A stretch of 64,000 nucleotides of DNA from Mustelus asterias. Taxonomy: Eukaryota. How positions within the stretch are numbered: the stretch's first letter is position 1; every line of letters starts with the position of its first letter. The notes beneath the pieces were generated by a model, which did not search any database, was not told the DNA's origin, and saw nothing but the letters and a program-made list of their open reading frames with translations. The stretch lies in NCBI RefSeq assembly GCF_964213995.1, contig NW_027590128.1:1488001-1552000 (forward strand), read 5' to 3'. Made by a program: the position numbers and the translations under genes. This document shows positions 14,789 through 63,510 of the stretch, in pieces.

Positions 14789-15189
14789 GGTGCAGGTGTC
14801 CTTACCTCTCTCTTGGGTGGACAATCAGTTGAAGCCTCGTCGACACACAGAACACGGGTACAGTCTCTCCCTGCTGTGAATGGTGTGATATTTATTCAGG
14901 CTGTATTACTGGTTAAAGCTCAGTGCACTCACTCGCGTGTGGCAGTGTGTTGGTGCTTTTCCAGTCACACTGATGTTTGAACTCTATTCAAATTGACAGA
15001 CCGGACAATAATTTCTCCTTCTGGATTCAAAGTCTGATGATATTGAGGTCCCATGGAATATGACTCTGCCAGATCTGGACGTGACGTTTGAGATTTCAGC
15101 CTGTGATTCCTCTTTTGATAACCTGTAAAACGAGTTTACAAAATTCACCACTGTCAGTACAGGATAGAAATTCAGAACAATTCTAGTTT

Positions 15190-15800
15190 AGAACCATAGA
15201 ACCATAGAAAATTACAGCTCAGAAACAGGCCTTTTGGCCCTTCTTGTCTGTGCCGAACCATTTTTTGCCTAGTCCCACTGACCTGCACTTGGACCATATC
15301 CCTCCACACCCCTCTCATCCATGAACCCATCCAAGTTTTTCTTAAATGTTAAAAGTGACCCCGCATTTACCACTTTAGCCAGCAGCGCATTCCACACTCC
15401 CACCACTCTCTGCGTGAAGAAGCCCCCCCTAATATTCCCTTTAAACTTTTCTCCTTTCACCCTCAACCCATGCCCTCTGGTTTTTTTCTCCCCTCGCCTC
15501 AGCGGAAAAAGCCTGCTTGCATTCACTCTATCTATACCCATCAAAATCTTATACACCTTTATCAAATCTCCCCTCAATCTTCTATGCTCCAGGGAATAAA
15601 GTCCCAACCTATTCAATCTCTCATGTAACTCAGCTTCTCAAGTCCCGGCAACATCCTTGTGAACCTCCTCTGCACTCTTTCAACCTTATTTACATCCTTC
15701 CTGTAACTCGGTGACCAAGACTGTACACAATACTCTGAATTCGGCCTCACCAATGCCTTATATAACCTTACCATAATACTCCAACTTTTATACTCAACTT
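15190..15800 (-). mobile_element. CR1 LINE 3' fragment in ZNF intron
   Basis: RLGLYSLEHRRLRGDLIKVYKI...FFTQRVV..WN; (TATGGTTC)n tail. Confidence 0.9.
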
Positions 15801-15939
15801 TTCTACTTTCTCTGGAACATTCTTTCCCCTCTCATTCCTCAAAAGCTGTGAATCTCCATCCCACACACTCTCCCTCCATTCTCATTCAGAAACAGGGACC
15901 AGTTTCCAATCCTGGAAATTTGAGTCTGTCTGAAGCTCA

Positions 15940-16260: not shown

Positions 16261-16524
16261 GCTGCTGCTCTCTCTCTGAATGAAGAATGAGCTTCTGACA
16301 GACTCAACCTTCCCCGTCTCCAACATCTGTGAGTAAAACACTTTCTTTTCTTCCCCTTTCCATTCCTTTTCTCATTCTGGGGTGAATTGGGGACTTGCAG
16401 CAACTGAAGGGAAAGGAAGTGAATCCAGTCGGTATGTTCCACAGATTTTTAGTCCACTCAAATAGATATATATCTGTCTGGCTACCTGCATAGAGATTTT
16501 CAGCTCTCTGTGTCCAAGACAGGA

Positions 16525-16729
16525 CAGTAAGAACTCTCACAACACCAGGTTAAAGTCCAACAGGTTTATTTGGCTGCACTAGCTTTTGGAGCCCCAAGCC
16601 CCTTCTTCAGGTCTCACCTGCTTGGGGCTCCAAAAGCTCGTGCTGCCAAATAAACCTGTTGGACTTTAACCCGGTGTTGTGAGACTTCGTACTGTGCTTA
16701 CCCCAGTCCAATGCCGGCATCTCCACATC
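16525..16729. mobile_element. Fold-back Penelope pLTR pair (MITE-like hairpin) in ZNF 5' region
   Basis: Inverted arms of about 70 bp; flanked by duplicated GACAGGA; hammerhead core on the minus strand has GAAA>AAAA. Confidence 0.8.
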
Positions 16730-17314
16730 CAGGACAGGAAGCAGTGAGCATGGATCTGTCAATCAGCACCGACAGGAGAATTGGGAGGGTGAATATTAGA
16801 CACAGCAGAGTGAGAATGGAGGGAGACTGTGTGGGATGGAGATTTACAGCTCTTGGGGAATGAGAGAGGAAAGAATGTTCCATAGAAACTAGAATTGTCT
16901 GTTCTGAATTTCTATCCTGTACTGACTGTGATAACCTTTGTAAACTCCTTTTACAGGATATCAGAAGGTGAGGATTTTACAGACAGAAATCTCAAACCAA
17001 ACATCACATCAACATCTGACAGAGTCACTCAATTCATCGGGACCTGAATGCGATCGGCCTTTGAATCCAGAAGGAGAAATGCTTCTCTGTTCTGTCAGCT
17101 TTAGCAGTCTTTAAACATCAGTGTGACTGGAACAGGACTGACACACACACACACAAAATCAACTGAGATTTTCCCGGGCATTGACTGTGGAAAGGGCCTC
17201 CCAGTTACACAGCCTGAAAAAATATTGCATCATCACAGCAGAGCACTATAATCTTGTTCTGTGTGAGACTTCAACTGATGGTCAAACCTGGAGCAACACA
17301 AGGATACCTGCACC

Positions 17315-18157
17315 ATGGAGAAACCGTGGAAATGTGGGGACTGTGGGAAGGGTTGCAAAACCCCCTCTGAGCTGCAAACTCATCGACGTATTCACACTGG
17401 AGAGAAGCCGTACACCTGTTCTGTGTGTGGGAAGAGATTCACTCGATTATATCATCTGCAGTGACATCGACTGGTTCACACTGGAGAAAGAGCGTTCATC
17501 TGCTTTGAGTGTGGGAACGGATTCGCTCATTTACCCGATCTGCAGAGACACCAGTGCGTTCACACTGGAGAGAGACCATTCACCTGCTTGGTGTGTGGGA
17601 AAGGATTTATGCAGTTATCCAATCTGTCAAAACACAAAGTCACTCACAGCAATGAGAGACCCTTTAAATGCTCTGATTGTGGAAGTGGTTTCAAAAGCTC
17701 TCGGGAACTGATGATCCACCAGCGGATTCACACTGGGGAGAGACCGTTCAGCTGCTCTCACTGCACAAAGACATTTAGAACATTATCTCACCTGCGGGAG
17801 CACCAGCGAATTCACACCAGGGAGAGACCGTTCACCTGCTCTGTGTGTGGGAAGGGATTCACTCATTCATCCAGCCTGCTGAGTCACAATCTCACTCATA
17901 CCCAGGAGAGACCCTTTAAATGCTCTGACTGTGGAAATGGTTTCAAAAGTTCTCGGGATCTGATGTCCCACCAGCGCATTCACACTGAGGAGAGACCGTT
18001 CAGCTGTTCTCTCTGCACAAAGAAATTTAGAACGTCATCCAACCTGCAGGAGCACCAGCGAGTTCACACTGGGGAGAGATCATTCACCTGCTGTGTGTGT
18101 GGGAAGGGATTCACTCAGTCATCCAGCCTGCGGAGACACCAGCGAGTTCACAAGTGA
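17315..18157 (+). pseudogene. C2H2 ZNF, 10 fingers, in-frame TGA in finger 2 (class A)
   Basis: ATG GAG AAA CCG TGG at 17315; TGA at 17462-17464; the frame continues to HK* at 18157. Confidence 0.85.
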
Positions 18158-18567
18158 TGACAGGGGTTGGATTCTGTTCTTATTGCTGCTGTTAATCACA
18201 TCCAGGACTGAACCATGTTCATTCTGACAGTTGATGAAGTGGAAGGGTAGGAGAGATTCTTTCTGCTGGACTGGCCGGTCGCACAACTTTGCATCCAGTG
18301 GGCTGATGCTCTTTGAGCCTGGGAGAGCACATTTCCACTGAAATGATCCACAAAAGCTGATGAAGGACATTTATTTTATCCTCGATAGTAAATAGTGTTT
18401 TTCCTACCACTACAGGTAGATCAAAAATAAATACAGAAAGGACTGGAAAAACGCAGCAGGTCTGGCAGCATCTGTGGAGAGAGAAACAGAGTTACCATTT
18501 CACACTCTGGATTGGGAATCAATCCAGTAAACCTCCTCTGAACTGTTTCCATGGTATTTATAAAATG

Positions 18568-18880
18568 GGACAGCACGGCAGCACAGTGGTAAGCACTGCT
18601 GCCTCACAACGCCAGGGACCCGGGTTCAATTCCACCCTGGGTCACTGTCTGTGTGGAGTTTGCACATTCTCCCCATGTCTGTGTCGGTTTCCTCCGGGTG
18701 CTCCGGTTTCCTCCCACAGTCCAAAGATGTGCGGGTGAGGTTGATTGGCTGTGCTAAATTGACCCTTAGTGTCAGGCGGAGTAGCTAGAGTGGTTATGGG
18801 AACAGGGCCTGGATGGGATGGTGTTTGGTACAGACTCGATGGGCAGAACGGCCTCTGTCTGTACTGTAGGAATTCTACGA
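18568..18880 (+). mobile_element. V-SINE (HE1-like), CR1-type tail B
   Basis: Head and V core, tail GATGGGC.GAA.GGCCT..CTGTAGGAATTCTA. Absent from the paralogous site near 5988. Confidence 0.9.
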
Positions 18881-19199
18881 TCCTTTGTTTAATTGGAGAC
18901 AAAAACTGCACCCAGTGTTCAAGATGCAGTTTCAGCAACACCCTGTATAACTGAAGCAGAACATCTTTACTTCTCTGTTCAATTTCTCTGTCTCTCTCTC
19001 CCTGCCTTTCTCTCTCTCGCTGTGCTCTCTCTCTCTTTGTGTGTCTCNNNNNNNNNNNNNNNNNNNNNNNNNNNNNNNNNNNNNNNNNNNNNNNNNNNNN
19101 NNNNNNNNNNNNNNNNNNNNNNNNNNNNNNNNNNNNNNNNNNNNNNNNNNNNNNNNNNNNNNNNNNNNNNNNNNNNNNNNNNNNNNNNNNNNNNNNNNN

Positions 19200-19724
19200 T
19201 CGCTCCCAGTCTCTCTCGCTCCCAGTCTCTCTCGCTCCCAGTCTCTCTCGCTCCCAGTCTCTCTCGCTCCCAGTCTCTCTCGCTCCCAGTCTCTCTCGCT
19301 CCCAGTCTCTCTCGCTCCCAGTCTCTCTCGCTCCCAGTCTCTCTCGCTCCCAGTCTCTCTCGCTCCCAGTCTCTCTCGCTCCCAGTCTCTCTCGCTCCCA
19401 GTCTCTCTCGCTCCCAGTCTCTCTCGCTCCCTGTCTCTCTCGCTCCCTGTCTCTCTCGCTCCCTGTCTCTCTCGCTCCCTGTCTCTCTCGCTCCCTGTCT
19501 CTCTCGCTCTGTCTCTCTCACTCTCTGCCTCTCACTGTGTCTCTCTCTCTCTTGCTGTGTGTCTCTCCCTCTCTGTCTCTCTTTCTCTCTCTCGCTCCCC
19601 TTCTTTCCCTCTCTGTGTCTCTCTCGCTCCCTGTCTCTCTCGCTCCCTGTCTCTCTCGCTCCCTGTCTCTCTCGCTCCCAGTCTCTCTCGCTCCCAGTCT
19701 CTCTCGCTCTGTCTCTCTCGCTCT
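19200..19724. repeat. 14-bp pyrimidine-rich minisatellite (CTCGCTCCCAGTCT / CTCGCTCCCTGTCT)
   Basis: Direct tandem units between N gaps at 19048-19199 and 19725-20162. Confidence 0.95.
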
Positions 19725-20162
19725 NNNNNNNNNNNNNNNNNNNNNNNNNNNNNNNNNNNNNNNNNNNNNNNNNNNNNNNNNNNNNNNNNNNNNNNNNNNN
19801 NNNNNNNNNNNNNNNNNNNNNNNNNNNNNNNNNNNNNNNNNNNNNNNNNNNNNNNNNNNNNNNNNNNNNNNNNNNNNNNNNNNNNNNNNNNNNNNNNNNN
19901 NNNNNNNNNNNNNNNNNNNNNNNNNNNNNNNNNNNNNNNNNNNNNNNNNNNNNNNNNNNNNNNNNNNNNNNNNNNNNNNNNNNNNNNNNNNNNNNNNNNN
20001 NNNNNNNNNNNNNNNNNNNNNNNNNNNNNNNNNNNNNNNNNNNNNNNNNNNNNNNNNNNNNNNNNNNNNNNNNNNNNNNNNNNNNNNNNNNNNNNNNNNN
20101 NNNNNNNNNNNNNNNNNNNNNNNNNNNNNNNNNNNNNNNNNNNNNNNNNNNNNNNNNNNNNN

Positions 20163-21100
20163 CTCCCCCACCCCCCGAGCTGTTCCCCCCCCCCGAGCTG
20201 TTCCCCCCCCCCGAGCTGTTCCCCCCCCCCCGAGCTGTTCCCCCCTCCCGAGCTGTTCCCCCCCGGAGCTTCCCCCCCCGAGCTTCCCCCCCCGAGCTTC
20301 CCCCCCCGAGCTTCCCCCCCCGAGCTTCCCCCCCCGAGCTTCCCCCCCCGAGCTTCCCCCCCCGAGCTTCCCCCCCCGAGCTTCCCCCCCCGAGCTTCCC
20401 CCCCCGAGCTTCCCCCCCGAGCTTCCCCCCCCGAGCTTCCCCCCCCGAGCTTCCCCCCCCGAGCTTCCCCCCCCGAGCTTCCCCCCCGAGCTTCCCCCCC
20501 CGAGCTTCCCCCCCCGAGCTTCCCCCCCCGAGCTTCCCCCCCCGAGCTTCCCCCCCGAGCTTCCCCCCCCGAGCTTCCCCCCCCGAGCTTCCCCCCCCGA
20601 GCTTCCCCCCCCGAGCTTCGCCCCCCGAGCTTCGCCCCCCGAGCTTCGCCCCCCGAGTTTCGCCCCCCGAGCTTCCCCCCCCGAGCTTCCCCCCCCGAGC
20701 TTCCCCCCCGAGCTTCCCCCCCCGAGCTTCCCCCCCCGAGCTTCCCCCCCCGAGCTTCCCCCCCCGAGCTTCCCCCCCGAGCTTCCCCCCCCGAGCTTCC
20801 CCCCCCGAGCTTCGCCCCCCGAGCTTCGCCCCCCGAGTTTCGCCCCCCGAGCTTCCCCCCCCGAACTTCGCCCCCCGAGCTTCGCCCCCCGAGTTTCGCC
20901 CCCCGAGCTTCGCCCCCCGAGCTTCGCCCCCCGAGCTTCGCCCCCCGAGCTGTTCCCCCCGAGCTGTTCCCCCCCGAGCTGTTCCCCCCCCCGAGCTGTT
21001 CCCCCCCCCCGAGCTGTTCCCCCCCCCGAGCTGTTCCCCCCCCCGAGCTGTTCCACCCCCCCGAGCTGTTCCCCCCCCCGAGCTGTTCCCCCCCCCGCTC
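20163..21100. repeat. 13-16-bp C-rich minisatellite (C7-9 GAGCTT / GAGCTGTT)
   Basis: Direct tandem units; long G-runs on the minus strand. Confidence 0.95.
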
Positions 21101-21659
21101 TGTTTCCCTCTCTCAGACCCACCCTGACCAATTCCTCTGAGACCCACCAGGATTCCCCCCCCACCCCAAATCCCAGCCCGATCCATAGGGGCCCCTCCCC
21201 AGCTCCTGAACCCCTGTCCCCACCCCCCCCGACAGACCCAAACCCCATGCTGAATCCCCCTCCCCCCTCCCCTTACTGCCAATGCCCTGTAGATTCCCCT
21301 CTGAGCCTAATCCCCCCCGAAATTAAATAAAACTCAATCTGAATGAGATCAGGAGAAACTCCAGGGTTATGAAAAGTTCAAAGACCAAACAGGAGCAGCA
21401 AACCATCAGACCCCGACAATTCGCACTCGCTTTCAGCCATTCCTCACAAAAGCTGCTGGGATTGTAACCTTCTGCCCAAAATATTATTTTTCTTTAGTTT
21501 CCAACATTCAGCAAGAATTCTGTGACCATCTATTAATCCTGACAGTCTTACGGTGAAGGAAGAAACTGGAGCCAATCTTTACTTGGAATAGATTTATTCA
21601 GAGTGAAACATTACAAGTATATACCTCCTAAGTAACTCATTGTTAGTCTCCCTTTCTAT

Positions 21660-22200
21660 GTCATAGAGGTTTACAGCATGGAAACAGGCCCTTCGGCCCA
21701 ACTTGTCTATGCCGGCCCTTTTTTTAAAACCCCGAAGCGAGTCCCAATTGCCCGCCTTTGGCCCATATCCCTCTATACCCATCTTACCCACGTAACTGTC
21801 TCATCGCTTTTTAAAAGACAAAATTGTACCCGCCTCAACTACTACCTGTGGCAGCTTGTTCCAGACACTCACCACCCTCTGTGTGAAAAAATTGCCCCTC
21901 TGGACCCTTTTGTATCTCTCCCCTCTCACCTTAAACCTATGCCCTCTAGTTTTAGACTCCCCTACCTTTGGGAAAATATGTTGACTATCTAGCTGACCTA
22001 TGCCCCTCATTATTTTATAGACCTCTATAAGATCACCCCTCAGCCTCCTACACTCCAGAGAAAATAATTCCCAGTCTATTCAGACTCTCCTTATAACTCA
22101 AACCATCAAGGCCCGGTAGCATCCGAGTAAATCTTTCCTGCACTCTTTCTAGCTTAAGAATGTCCTTTCTACGATAGGGTGGCCAGAACTGTACACAGTT
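21660..22200 (-). mobile_element. CR1 LINE 3' fragment
   Basis: MRGIGQLDSQHIFPKVGESKTRGHRFKVRG..FFTQRVVSVWNKLP; same subfamily as 9012-12505 and 48350-48945. Confidence 0.9.
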
Positions 22201-22279
22201 CTCCTTCCTAAAATGTGGTCACTCAATTGATGCGATTAACAGCCACAGAGCATCGAATCACTGCAACTGCCTTGGTGTC

Positions 22280-23332
22280 TCAGCAGTTTGGATGAACAAG
22301 TGAATCCCTGCCCACACACACAGCAGGTGAATGAATCTCTGCGTTATGAAATCGTTGGTGTCTCAGTAAGTTGGATAAATCATTGAACCCTTTCTCACAC
22401 ACGGAGCAGGTGAACGGTCTCTCTCCATTGTGAACTCGCTGGTGTGTCTGTAGGTGGGATGACTGAGTGAATCCTTTCCCACACTTAGAGCAGGTGAATG
22501 GCTTCTCCCCAGTGTGAACTCGTTGGTGTCTCTGCAGGTTGGATGAATCACTGAACCCCTTCCCACAGTCAGAACAGGTGAATGGCTTCTCCCTGGTGTG
22601 AACTCTCTGATGTCTCAGCAGATCGTATGACATTCTAAAGCACTTTGTGCAGTGAGAGCAACTGAACGGTCTCTCCTCAGTGTCCAGCAGCACAGATTGT
22701 ATGAAGCAACTCCCACAGTCAGAGCATTTAAAATGTGTCTCATTGGTGTGGGTGCCTCGTTGTCCCAGCAGACTGTCAGTCTGACTGAATCCCTTCCCAC
22801 ACACGGAGCAGGTGAATGGCGTCTCCCTGGTGTGAATGCGTCGATGTCTCACCAGACTTGATGACTGAGTGAATCCCCTTCCACAGTCAGAGCAGCTGAA
22901 CGGCCTCTCCCCGGTGTGAATGCGCTGGTGTGTCAGCAGGAGGGATGAGTGAGCGAATCCCTTCCCACAGTCAGAACAGGTGAACAGTCCCTCACTGGTG
23001 TGAAAGCTCTCGTGATTCCTCAAAGCAGATGCCCGTGTGAATCCTTTCCCACACTGAGAGCAGGTGAATGGTCTCTCCCCAGTGTGAACTCGCTGGTGTA
23101 TCAGCAGGTTGGATGAATCACTGAAGCCTTTCCCACATTCAGAGCAGGTGAACGGCCTCTTCCCAGTGTGAACTCTCTGGTGTCTATGCAGGGTGGATGA
23201 ATCAATGAATCCTTTCCCACACATCGAGCAGGTGAATGGCCTTTCTCCGCTGTGACTGCGTTGATGAGTTTCCAGCTCACAGGGAGCACGGAATCCTTTC
23301 CCACAAACCTCACATTTCCACGGTTTCTCCAT
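22280..23332 (-). CDS. C2H2 ZNF (class A), about 10 intact plus 2 degenerate fingers, last finger frameshifted
   Basis: Open frame from MEKPWKCEVC; central fingers lose His; the C-terminus shifts frame (HNAEIHSPAVCV). Confidence 0.75.
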   Translation of the reverse strand: MEKPWKCEVCGKGFRAPCELETHQRSHSGERPFTCSMCGKGFIDSSTLHRHQRVHTGKRPFTCSECGKGFSDSSNLLIHQRVHTGERPFTCSQCGKGFTRASALRNHESFHTSEGLFTCSDCGKGFAHSSLLLTHQRIHTGERPFSCSDCGRGFTQSSSLVRHRRIHTRETPFTCSVCGKGFSQTDSLLGQRGTHTNETHFKCSDCGSCFIQSVLLDTEERPFSCSHCTKCFRMSYDLLRHQRVHTREKPFTCSDCGKGFSDSSNLQRHQRVHTGEKPFTCSKCGKGFTQSSHLQTHQRVHNGERPFTCSVCEKGFNDLSNLLRHQRFHNAEIHSPAVCVGRDSLVHPNC

Positions 23333-23819
23333 GGTGCTGGTGTCCTTGTTGTTTCTCCTGGTTTGATGATCAGTTGAAGCCTCGTCCACACACAGAACAC
23401 GTGTACAGCTTCTCTCCACTGTGAACGGTATGATGTTTTTTCATGCTATGCAACTCAGTGCTTTTCCAGTCACACTGACGATTGACATATTTTCCACAGA
23501 CAAACATTTATACTTCCACATTCAAAGGTTGAAGAATAATCGAGTGACTCAAGCCAAGATGTTTGTTTTGAGTTTTGAATCTGCAAATCTTTCCCTTGTA
23601 ATACCTGTAAAGAGAGTTTACAAAATTAATCAGTCAGTCCGGGATAGAAATTCTGAACAGACAATTCTAGTTTCTAAGGAATATTCTTTCCACCCTCAAT
23701 CCTCAAAATCTGCTAATCTCCACACCACACAGTCTCCCTCTATCCCCACTCTGCTGTACGTAATTCTACACCTTGGAAATTCTGCTGATGGACAGATCTC
23801 TGTTAACTGCTTCCTGTCT

Positions 23820-24160
23820 CAACCGGGATATTGGGTTCATGTCACACTATTTGTAACTCCCACAGTTGCGTGGACCTGCAGAGTTTCACTGGCTGTCTTG
23901 TCTGGAGACAATACACATAGTTTTAGCCTGTCTTGATGCTCTCTCCACTCACATTGTTTTGTTTCTTAAAGACTTGATTAGTTGTAAGTATTCGCATTCC
24001 AACCATTATTCATGTAAATTGAGTCTGTGTCTTTATAAGCTCTGTTTGTGAACAGAATTCCCACTCACCTGAAGAAGGGGCTTAGAGCTCCGAAAGCTTG
24101 TGTGGCTTTTGCTACCAAATAAACCTGTTGGACTTTAACCTGGTGTTGTTAAACTTCTTA
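23820..24160 (+). mobile_element. Penelope pLTR with ORF tail, in ZNF 5' region
   Basis: Begins NRDIGFMSHYL*; ends AATAAACCTGTTGGACTTTAACCTGGTGTTGTTAAACTTCTTA; TSD TCCTGTCT; near-identical to 47835-48158. Confidence 0.85.
24066..24102 (+). ncRNA. Minimal type I hammerhead ribozyme motif
   Basis: CAC-CUGAAGA-A-GGGGC-uuaga-GCUCC-GAAA-GC-UU-GUG. Confidence 0.7.
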
Positions 24161-24254
24161 TCCTGTCTTGGACTCAGAGATCGTAAGAAATAGGAACAGA
24201 AGCAGGCCATTCACCCCATCAAGCCTGCTCTGTCACTCAGTATGATTAAGGTGA

Positions 24255-39496: not shown

Positions 39497-40111
39497 TGAT
39501 GTGGAGATGCCGGCGTTGGACTGGGGTAAGCATAGTAAGAAGTCTCACAACACCAGGTTAAAGTCCAACAGGTTTATTTGGTAGCACAAGCCACTAACTT
39601 TCAGAGCGCTGCCCCTTCATCAGATGAGTGGGAGTTCTGTTCACAAGCAGGGCATAAAAATGCACATCACCAACTATCCCCGGGACAAGTCGGATACACT
39701 TGTCACGTACAATAGTTTCTTTGAATTAACGGGTTTGAAGGCCCAGAAGTGTGTTTGGCAGTTATCGGCCAGTCGTCTTCCAGCATGTACCAAATCTGCC
39801 AGTGTTGTGGCTGCCTGATACCCTGCGGGGCCACCGGTCAGGCACGACTCACTATGGTTTAGAATGCCAAGATAACCACAGCTAAGGAAGTTCTGCCACG
39901 TCACGAAGCCGGTTAGACGGATTGGCCAGGATAAATTGCCACTTGGTATCAAGGTAAATATGTGGATAGGGCCTGGATGGGATTGTTGTCTTCATGTGCC
40001 CTGTGAACAGAATTCCCACTCACCTGATGAAGGAGCAGCGCTCCGAAAGCTAGTGGCTTGTGCTACCAAATAAACCTGTTGGACTTTAACCTGCTGTTGT
40101 GAGACTTCTCA
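39497..40111. mobile_element. Inverted Penelope pLTR pair enclosing a ~340-bp spacer
   Basis: Inverted arms of about 110 bp; TSD CTGGGTTCAGTTC; hammerhead motifs at 39592-39626 (-) and 40021-40055 (+). Confidence 0.85.
40021..40055 (+). ncRNA. Minimal type I hammerhead ribozyme motif
   Basis: CAC-CUGAUGA-A-GGAGC-agc-GCUCC-GAAA-GC-UA-GUG. Confidence 0.75.
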
Positions 40112-40529
40112 CTGGGTTCAGTTCTCCAGCTGCTGTCTGCAGACTGACAATAAAACCATTGGGTCTTATTGGGGGTGTTGGGGCCTCCAGCGGGTGTTTG
40201 TGAATCCTCCCCGCCCACCTCCCAGGGTTTCCTTCCTTCCCAGAGATCAGAGTCCTCATTGATTTGAGGCCAAAGTGTAACCTCTTATTTATTGTCCCCC
40301 TCCCCCATCCTCTGATGTGAACCATCCTCCAGTGGCTGAGCCAGGATGGGGCCGTTAACCTGGGCCTGTTCCCGGGAGGGAGGGAGGGAGGGAGAAGCCC
40401 CGCAGCTGCAAACCAGGGAGCTGACAATGATTCTGAAGGGTTTGCGGATCCACAAAGTGTTTCCAAATCCTCCCAGCCACCGCCTAACGCTGACTCCGCT
40501 TCTCCGGGACAAACAAGCGCCAAGGACAG

Positions 40530-62678: not shown

Positions 62679-63510
62679 GGTGCGGGTGTCCTTGTGACTC
62701 TCCAGGTTAAACAATAAGTTAAATCTCACATGGAACACGTGTACAGTTTCTTCCCGTTGTGAATGGCGATGTTTTTTCAGGCTGTGTAACAGGTTAAAGC
62801 TCTTTCCACACTCAGTTCACTGGAACACTCTCAATCAGGTGTGTGTGTGTCTCGGTGCTTTTCCAGTCACACTGATGTTAGAATGGCCGAAGGTTTCACA
62901 TCCCAGTGAATTGAGTGGCTCAGATCTTGATGTTTGTTTTGAGATTTCTGTCTCAAAATTCTCCCCTTCTAATATCCTGTAAAAGGAGTTCACAAAAGTC
63001 ACCACTATTAGTGTAGGATAAAAATTCAGAACAGACAGTTTTAGTTTCTCTGGAACAATCTACCTCTCATTCCCCCAAAACTGTAAATCTGTCTATTTTT
63101 CCTCCATTCTCAGTCTGCTGTCCCTCCAACACTCCTGAAGATGCTAATTCATGTTGATTGACAGATCAATACATAATGCTTCCTGTCCTCAACACAGAGA
63201 CCATAACATCATGGAAAGTAGGAGGAATAGACCATTCAGCCCATTGAGCCTGCCGTTCCATTCAATAAGATGATGGTTGATCCGATTGTGCCCTTAACTC
63301 CACGTTCCCGCCTGTCGGCCATAACTCTTGTAGATAACAATCTGCCTAACTCAGCCTGATGCAGCCTCCACTGCTCCCTGGGGAAAATAATTCCAAAGAC
63401 CCCCTGAGGGAAGAAATTTCTCCTCCTCTCCATTAGAAATGAGAAACCCTTTATATTTGGCATTCTGCCCATGTGGGGAAATAACCTCTCTTCATCTGTC
63501 AAGCTACCTT

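Follow-up and report, generated by a model that had tools for sequence, protein, structure and literature searches.

A window of 64,000 nucleotides (nt) from the shark Mustelus asterias (RefSeq assembly GCF_964213995.1, contig NW_027590128.1, positions 1,488,001 to 1,552,000; the coordinates below are those of the window) carries paralogous C2H2 zinc-finger genes, two of which, here called A and B, are interrupted by insertions of a Penelope-like retroelement. In gene orientation the tail-less element end follows directly after GACAGGA in both genes, at the same base, confirming an earlier note that had described two different Penelope inserts at one position. The reading favored here, with a probability of about 0.8, is that the two inserts arose independently at a palindromic target used by the whole element family, where both strands are nicked 12 bp apart and both resulting ends prime complementary DNA (cDNA). 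The insertion-site preference of the family takes the form (C)TG-NN-[12-bp duplication]-NN-CA(G). The target preference considered in the earlier note thus stands in a narrower form than proposed, as a palindrome preferred by the whole family and centered on a 12-bp duplication; that the GIY-YIG domain of the element nuclease itself reads this motif is something we infer.

Gene A lies on the forward strand, and the sequences of both sites and of a third paralog are present as described. The target lies within what the splice signals (a GTGAGT donor and a TTTTACAG acceptor) indicate to be an intron of the 5' untranslated region (16329..16956, +), about 220 bp upstream of the acceptor at 16956 of the zinc-finger exon (donor at 16329), a more exact placement than the "5' regions" first named. 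From left to right, the site comprises a half-site CTG (16508..16510, +; positions -11 to -9 from the target center), the left copy of a 12-bp target-site duplication TCCAAGACAGGA (16513..16524, +), insert A (16525..16727, no single strand), the right duplication copy TCCAGGACAGGA (16728..16739, +), and a half-site CAG (16742..16744, +; positions +9 to +11), the register of both half-sites being set from the motif. The two 12-bp copies differ by one mismatch, and the A at position 5 of the left copy is likely a post-insertion change. GTCCAAG, which shares this A, reads GTCCAGG in the right copy and in empty relatives; that both GTCCAAG junctions have an A in common would, by this comparison, be partly coincidence. 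Insert A consists of two Penelope 3' ends in inverted arrangement, the fold-back pair of the earlier note, with arms at 16521-16599 and 16620-16698 that are 92% complementary over 79 nt. Its left arm is antisense and tail-less and begins CAGTAAG, while its right arm is in sense orientation and bears a tail of about 35 nt. It belongs to the CTCAC subfamily and occurs in five copies in the assembly.

Gene B lies on the reverse strand. Its right half-site CAG (23807..23809, -) and the downstream copy of an 8-bp duplication, AGACAGGA (23812..23819, -), precede insert B (23820..24160, + in element sense), which is followed by the upstream copy of the target TCCAAGACAGGA (24161..24172, -) and the left half-site CTG (24175..24177, -); the 8-bp duplication thus occupies 23812-23819 and 24161-24168. 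Insert B, 341 bp long, contains the last 35 nt or so of the open reading frame (ORF) and the 3' pseudo-long terminal repeat (pLTR), is tail-less, and begins TAAG in cDNA orientation. The earlier note had described a solo pLTR with ORF tail; the form of the insert is that of a direct 5'-truncated copy rather than of a solo repeat left by recombination. It represents the TTTAAC subfamily, is a single copy, and shares 99.1% identity with a copy elsewhere in the genome that is unrelated by locus. A minimal hammerhead-like core (CTGAAGA, a helix, and GAAA; 24069..24095, +) was recognized by eye in insert B as a candidate for the hammerhead ribozyme that pLTRs of endonuclease-bearing Penelope-like elements carry; its helix II folds, and Rfam returned no hammerhead match. 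The only Rfam matches, two weak ones to miRNA hairpins, were dismissed as fold-back artefacts.

The motif was derived from 800 kb of sequence sampled away from the zinc-finger cluster, in which 104 tail-less ends yielded 54 inverted inserts with a resolved duplication. Twelve bp is the modal duplication length and is compatible with 45 of these 54 sites. TG-N16-CA centered on the duplication occurs at 31/54 sites, against none in either of two shifted controls, and CTG-N16-CAG at 15/54, against 0-2 for other spacings and 0-1 for shifted positions. The palindromic matrix, (C)TCTG-(T/G)C-[12]-G(A/C)-CAGA(G), reaches a log-likelihood of 241 (38-48 in shifted controls). Under six-fold cross-validation the score was 5.2 vs. 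-2.5, with 46/54 sites above the 95th control percentile. The preference persists when the matrix is not symmetrized and seven CR1-like sites are removed (T at -10, 33/47; G at -9, 36/47; C at +9, 40/47; A at +10, 40/47); there is a further preference for C at -11, for G at +11, and for T/A at -12/+12, and the core leans toward AT. Further sites were drawn from searches over the 3.68-Gb genome. The predicted 14-nt spacing was found in 35 of the first 100 of 4,608 genome-wide TCTG...CAGTAAG junctions (p = 2e-18). Of these junctions, 20 picked by the left half alone gave 17 that could be resolved, 12 with CA at +9/+10 and seven with CAG, as predicted. Held-out incidental sites gave a weaker outcome (TG-N16-CA in 6/11), and 200 kb of contig C71, with only eight element ends, added little. 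The idea that element ends routinely regenerate a half-site was rejected, as this is true for only 7/54 ends. A position in the CR1 reverse transcriptase (RT), reading W-L-x-D-R-K-Q-R, also matches the motif and is struck repeatedly, in both orientations and by both subfamilies (L001, L012, L014, L015, L186, L188, L189, L191, L195, L204-L207, L211-L213, L215, L216, L218, and L280).

The layout of the inserts suggests how such a target may be used. Nearly all inverted inserts (47/49) have one tailed and one tail-less element end, both ends carry excess microhomology of 1-2 nt, and the two insert orientations use opposite ends of the same 12-mer. One strand would be nicked at +6/+7 and the opposite strand at -6/-7, in both cases two bases ahead of CA(G). 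This symmetric staggered cut would leave 12-nt 3' overhangs, as the junctions suggest: what abuts the 3' end of the duplication is the tail-less start of the cDNA on one strand and the tailed end on the other. Two endonuclease sites would act symmetrically, probably as a dimer. Extension and annealing of both 3' ends would produce the fold-back form of insert A; if only one 3' end were extended and the other annealed to the cDNA, a direct truncated copy with a shorter duplication, as in insert B, would be expected. The most specific version of this scheme, to which we give about even odds, is that the GIY-YIG nuclease acts as a dimer, reads the palindrome, and cuts both strands in concert to leave 12-nt 3' overhangs in the manner of a transposase or restriction enzyme, both subunits then priming, one at the tail and one at an internal start. 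Possible, though doubtful, is that the symmetry reflects DNA bendability at TG/CA steps, or two successive nicks by a single monomer, instead of base reading by a dimer. The strongest positions are indeed a TG and a CA step around an AT-leaning core, and flexible pyrimidine-purine steps are given, in the part of the source consulted, as underlying the weak palindromes of retroviral integration (PMC4422553). Against bendability, the bases preferred at -11, +11, and -12/+12 go beyond what one flexible step would need. Either of these explanations alters only how the site is read, and leaves the independence of the inserts and the staggered cut as they are.

Within the zinc-finger genes the same intron position has been struck repeatedly. 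Junction searches returned zinc-finger-type matches in 4/23, 18/24, and a further 2 of 16 cases; 9/19 matches for the opposite orientation at the symmetric nick were of this type, as predicted, as were 45/62 tail-bearing ends. Genome-wide, occupied copies of the intron site lie at 75 distinct places, in both orientations and at one 12-bp target. Start point, length, orientation, and far junction distinguish about 20 structures among these roughly 75 copies, the classes being assigned by eye and, for five classes in which the downstream intron differs, through the upstream flank and about 20 nt downstream. All 16 junctions within the 30 nt after the upstream anchor lie no more than about 4 nt from the nick, and the 30 nt downstream of the site hold none. 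Exact empty sites number 677, and a looser 13-mer, GACAGGAAGCAGT, has 1,753 genome occurrences vs. 44 for its reversed control. The occupancy of zinc-finger sites, a count the earlier note had called for, is then 5-10% of site copies, as estimated from pattern counts. Treating classes E7 and E10 as one flipped insert was rejected: they are 88% identical and differ in truncation points and upstream flanks. At L287:3334-3640 (C395) a compound insert with three target copies may reflect two successive insertions into one zinc-finger site or one event with three cDNA pieces, and at L257 and L270 an insert of about 39 nt consists of the tail alone at the zinc-finger site. In L094-L105 a second copy of the intron site lies in opposite orientation about 750-1,150 bp from the occupied one, which suggests pairs of divergent genes with a common promoter region.

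Zinc-finger insertions are roughly as numerous as the motif alone would predict. The A-type site ranks in the top 2e-4 of positions by score and accounts for 86% of the motif weight across 660 bp of its intron; its enrichment is 405-fold (bootstrap 5-95%: 75-1,560), or 1,250-fold on flanks alone, and that of the site in gene B is lower, at 77-fold. Among 750-1,500 sites, about 7-15 exact tail-less ends are expected from the motif, and 12 events in 33 copies were seen; with no preference the expectation would be 0.02-0.04 exact element ends vs. the 33 seen. The hotspot arises because a high-scoring target was multiplied to about 750-1,500 copies by gene duplication, the occupied copies then being duplicated further. 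Targeting specific to zinc-finger genes, through open promoter-proximal chromatin, a bound factor, or selection, and either added to the motif or replacing it, is an unlikely explanation. It would account for the high occupancy (75 copies vs. 677 exact or about 1,500 looser sites), for 33 copies exceeding the central expectation, and for a site 200-400 bp from the likely promoter of gene A. Against it, neighboring positions of the same intron are not struck, the site itself dominates the motif weight there, insertions recur at the motif-matching position of CR1 and other repeats far from these genes, and the number fits the motif alone when counted as the 12 events.

Genes A and B are hosts to independent, recent insertions of one family. 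The two host genes are 77% identical. The 30 loci recovered for A comprise A, four copies nearly identical to it, and 25 paralogs of 93-96% identity, so that 25/29 of its closest paralogs are empty and the remaining four carry the insert of A itself. Of the 30 loci matching the downstream flank of B, 12 hold the site, namely B and 11 paralogs (89-99% identical), all 11 of them empty; the other 18 matched only farther downstream. The flanks of insert B are 97-98% identical to empty paralogs, and on contig C390 a duplicated block holds both genes, both of them empty. The full host tree of 122 rows (10 of 30 empty loci without an acceptor in range being omitted) needs 11 changes and contains long branches from rows with different downstream sequence. 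For approximately unbiased (AU) tests, 32 rows (classes E4, E6, E9, E12, E13, and E14, and two empties) were dropped, leaving a duplicate-free set of 90, in which A and B as one clade are rejected (p-AU = 1e-53), as is a single clade of all 35 occupied rows (p-AU = 3.5e-10). The outcome that the earlier note had named as contrary to target preference, occupied paralogs forming one clade, was therefore not obtained. Each of the six multi-copy insert classes forms a single host clade, with support of 97-100. That a single insertion in a common ancestor of A and B was remodeled by gene conversion and deletion and precisely lost in the empty paralogs, the other possibility in the earlier note, is highly improbable: A and B do share nick position and orientation only 7 kb apart, and there is one case of a converted element end (L105), but the AU tests, the close match of the flanks of B to empty paralogs and of its insert to an unrelated copy, the differences between A and B in duplication length, start point, subfamily, and layout, the opposite orientation of other events, and empty sister copies with no excision scars all speak against it. 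The 7-kb proximity is taken as chance among about 20 events. L105 itself has the 5' (far) junction and host clade of the L094-L103 class and the 3' end of the other subfamily, a probable case of gene conversion between element copies.

Several points weigh against independent insertion at a symmetrically cut palindromic target as set out above. The motif is loose, with 23/54 sites lacking TG-N16-CA, and its matrix comes from 54 inverted inserts, mostly in 3 Mb of one contig. In the first validation set of 11 sites only six scored above controls, with a mean of 2.2, and at least 10% of 40 bootstrap draws with free register settled on a different one. The range of the enrichment estimate is 20-fold, wide enough for an added effect of chromatin or gene of a few-fold. 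Some of the copies counted on small contigs may be haplotypic duplicates, and the event classes are by-eye groupings. The microhomology excess (0.9 vs. 0.5 nt at one insert end, 1.3 vs. 0.4 nt at the other) could stem from misplaced duplication boundaries, and nick polarity and the dimer are deduced from the layout of the inserts. Lastly, the PAc protein of the Poseidon element of Anolis carolinensis has a preference for ATT in AT-rich DNA, and its in vitro priming proceeds without homology, according to excerpts of its description (PMC11167929), and the motif is therefore not general to Penelope elements.

The family comprises 160,619 exact 19-nt ends, about 75 of which are at the zinc-finger site. 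Site-specific retrotransposons of the R2 type confine their insertion to one target sequence. The shark family shows no such confinement and is not site-specific, because its ends are dispersed genome-wide. One genomic copy (L179) retains an open frame of 915 residues with an RVT_1 match (E = 4e-10); the ten best structure matches of the element protein are telomerase RTs, and its closest named relatives are from sharks. A single ORF with a telomerase-related RT is a feature of endonuclease-bearing (EN+) Penelope-like elements, and the pLTR, an optional tail of 30-40 nt, the inverted layout, and target duplication are all present as well. EN+ elements also have a C-terminal GIY-YIG endonuclease with a CCHH motif, for which a candidate (VVYLIRCKKGCPEAWYIGET and, later, HFSGHGH) was recognized by eye; the Pfam GIY-YIG model gave no match to the L179 protein, and PF01541 is listed on many of its homologs. 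The linker between RT and endonuclease (EN) reads CHSNLCKTC at 776-784, with C776 and C781 invariant in 91 sequences. A CX2-5CxxC linker at this place defines the Neptune and Nematis clades in the consulted part of the source (PMC8557442), by whose definitions the family is a Neptune/Nematis-type Penelope-like element, a type covering both clades. Seven insertions lie in the element's own 3' region at CTCCAGACAGGA (L003, L007-L009, L016, L019, and L020), some resembling partial tandems and others true nested insertions.

The element class and the inverted layout are already known (PMC3846280; PMC2377424); comparisons here and below draw on excerpts of the cited papers. PAc cleaves both strands and extends each of them, has two start sites that delimit the tail, and has been predicted to dimerize (PMC11167929), all of which fits the mechanism proposed for the shark element. 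It differs in that those excerpts report no spacing rule or fixed duplication, and in belonging to the Poseidon clade, without the linker finger of the shark protein. The Neptune and Nematis elements with a C-terminal EN are alike in their single ORF, telomerase-like RT, CX2-5CxxC linker, pLTRs, and inverted and tandem insertions, and probably in their GIY-YIG domain; their described bias is toward microsatellites, whereas the shark family uses a non-repetitive bipartite palindrome with a 12-bp duplication (PMC8557442). Penelope elements of Adineta vaga share head-to-head pLTRs, an optional tail on one of them, and duplications of 8-10 bp, but self-priming on an antisense template was proposed there and the excerpts give no target motif (PMC3846280). 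For DNA transposons and retroviral integrases a palindromic target model has been described, in which a weak palindrome has a duplication of fixed length at its center and further base preferences beyond it (PMC2577343; PMC4422553); these are DDE enzymes joining two DNA ends, whereas the shark element would be target-primed by a GIY-YIG nuclease. The RTE clade of non-LTR retroelements likewise prefers bases distant from the duplication, but with a T-stretch near -10 and an apurinic-type (APE) nuclease, and the text seen mentions no palindrome or symmetry (PMC6007223). The target biases on record for Penelope elements are toward microsatellites, AT-rich DNA, telomeres, and, in one case, ribosomal DNA (PMC11167929 and PMC8557442, among others). 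Literature searches found no palindromic target for Penelope elements, although Repbase reports, subscription papers, and supplements, which lay outside their scope, may describe one; none appears in the consulted portions of PMC2377424, PMC12910113, PMC3681739, PMC9977147, or bioRxiv 10.64898/2026.07.22.740005.

How Penelope-like elements choose and cut their targets, and why their insertions are often inverted with a one-sided tail, are largely open questions, and the only in vitro system reports just an ATT preference. To these the window adds a single natural site struck about 20 times, together with sister alleles that are empty, and a hotspot whose size the motif matches quantitatively. 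With its symmetry and fixed spacing, the motif yields exact nick predictions and a defined substrate, and the genome has open-frame copies. If correct, dimeric cutting with dual priming would account for the inverted layout and the tail on one side only, both of which have long been puzzling, and the zinc-finger site would offer a ready natural substrate for proof. On the host side, one intron position of an expanding zinc-finger family gathers inserts in 5-10% of its copies, and such an insert, when shared, cannot serve as a marker free of homoplasy.

Elsewhere in the window, the third paralog (gene C) was confirmed to be empty near 63175-63200, though its site has diverged: it reads GACAGGAAGCATT at 63175-63187 and CTG-TG-TTGAGGACAGGA-AG-CAT as a whole (63175..63197, -), with a motif score of 5.3 vs. 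7.6 for the A-type site. The family has a further inverted insertion (approximately 39500..40115, no single strand) in a zinc-finger intron of a different subfamily, at a different site in the same motif register. At each of the five tail-less ends in the window, a CTG precedes the element core by 26-29 nt, matching the register given their start points. The C2H2 zinc-finger exon of gene A, beginning MEKPWKC, spans 17316..18160 (+, end approximate) and has an in-frame stop at 17466-17468, after the second finger; inverted partial copies of the intron-acceptor region lie just upstream of the gene, at 15070-15190 and 15800-15890. The fingers of gene B read open throughout, and gene C has frameshifts. 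Directly upstream of the site in genes B (24173-24235) and C (63200-63290), the A-type intron sequence is replaced by a stretch that we take to resemble a CR1-like 3' end.

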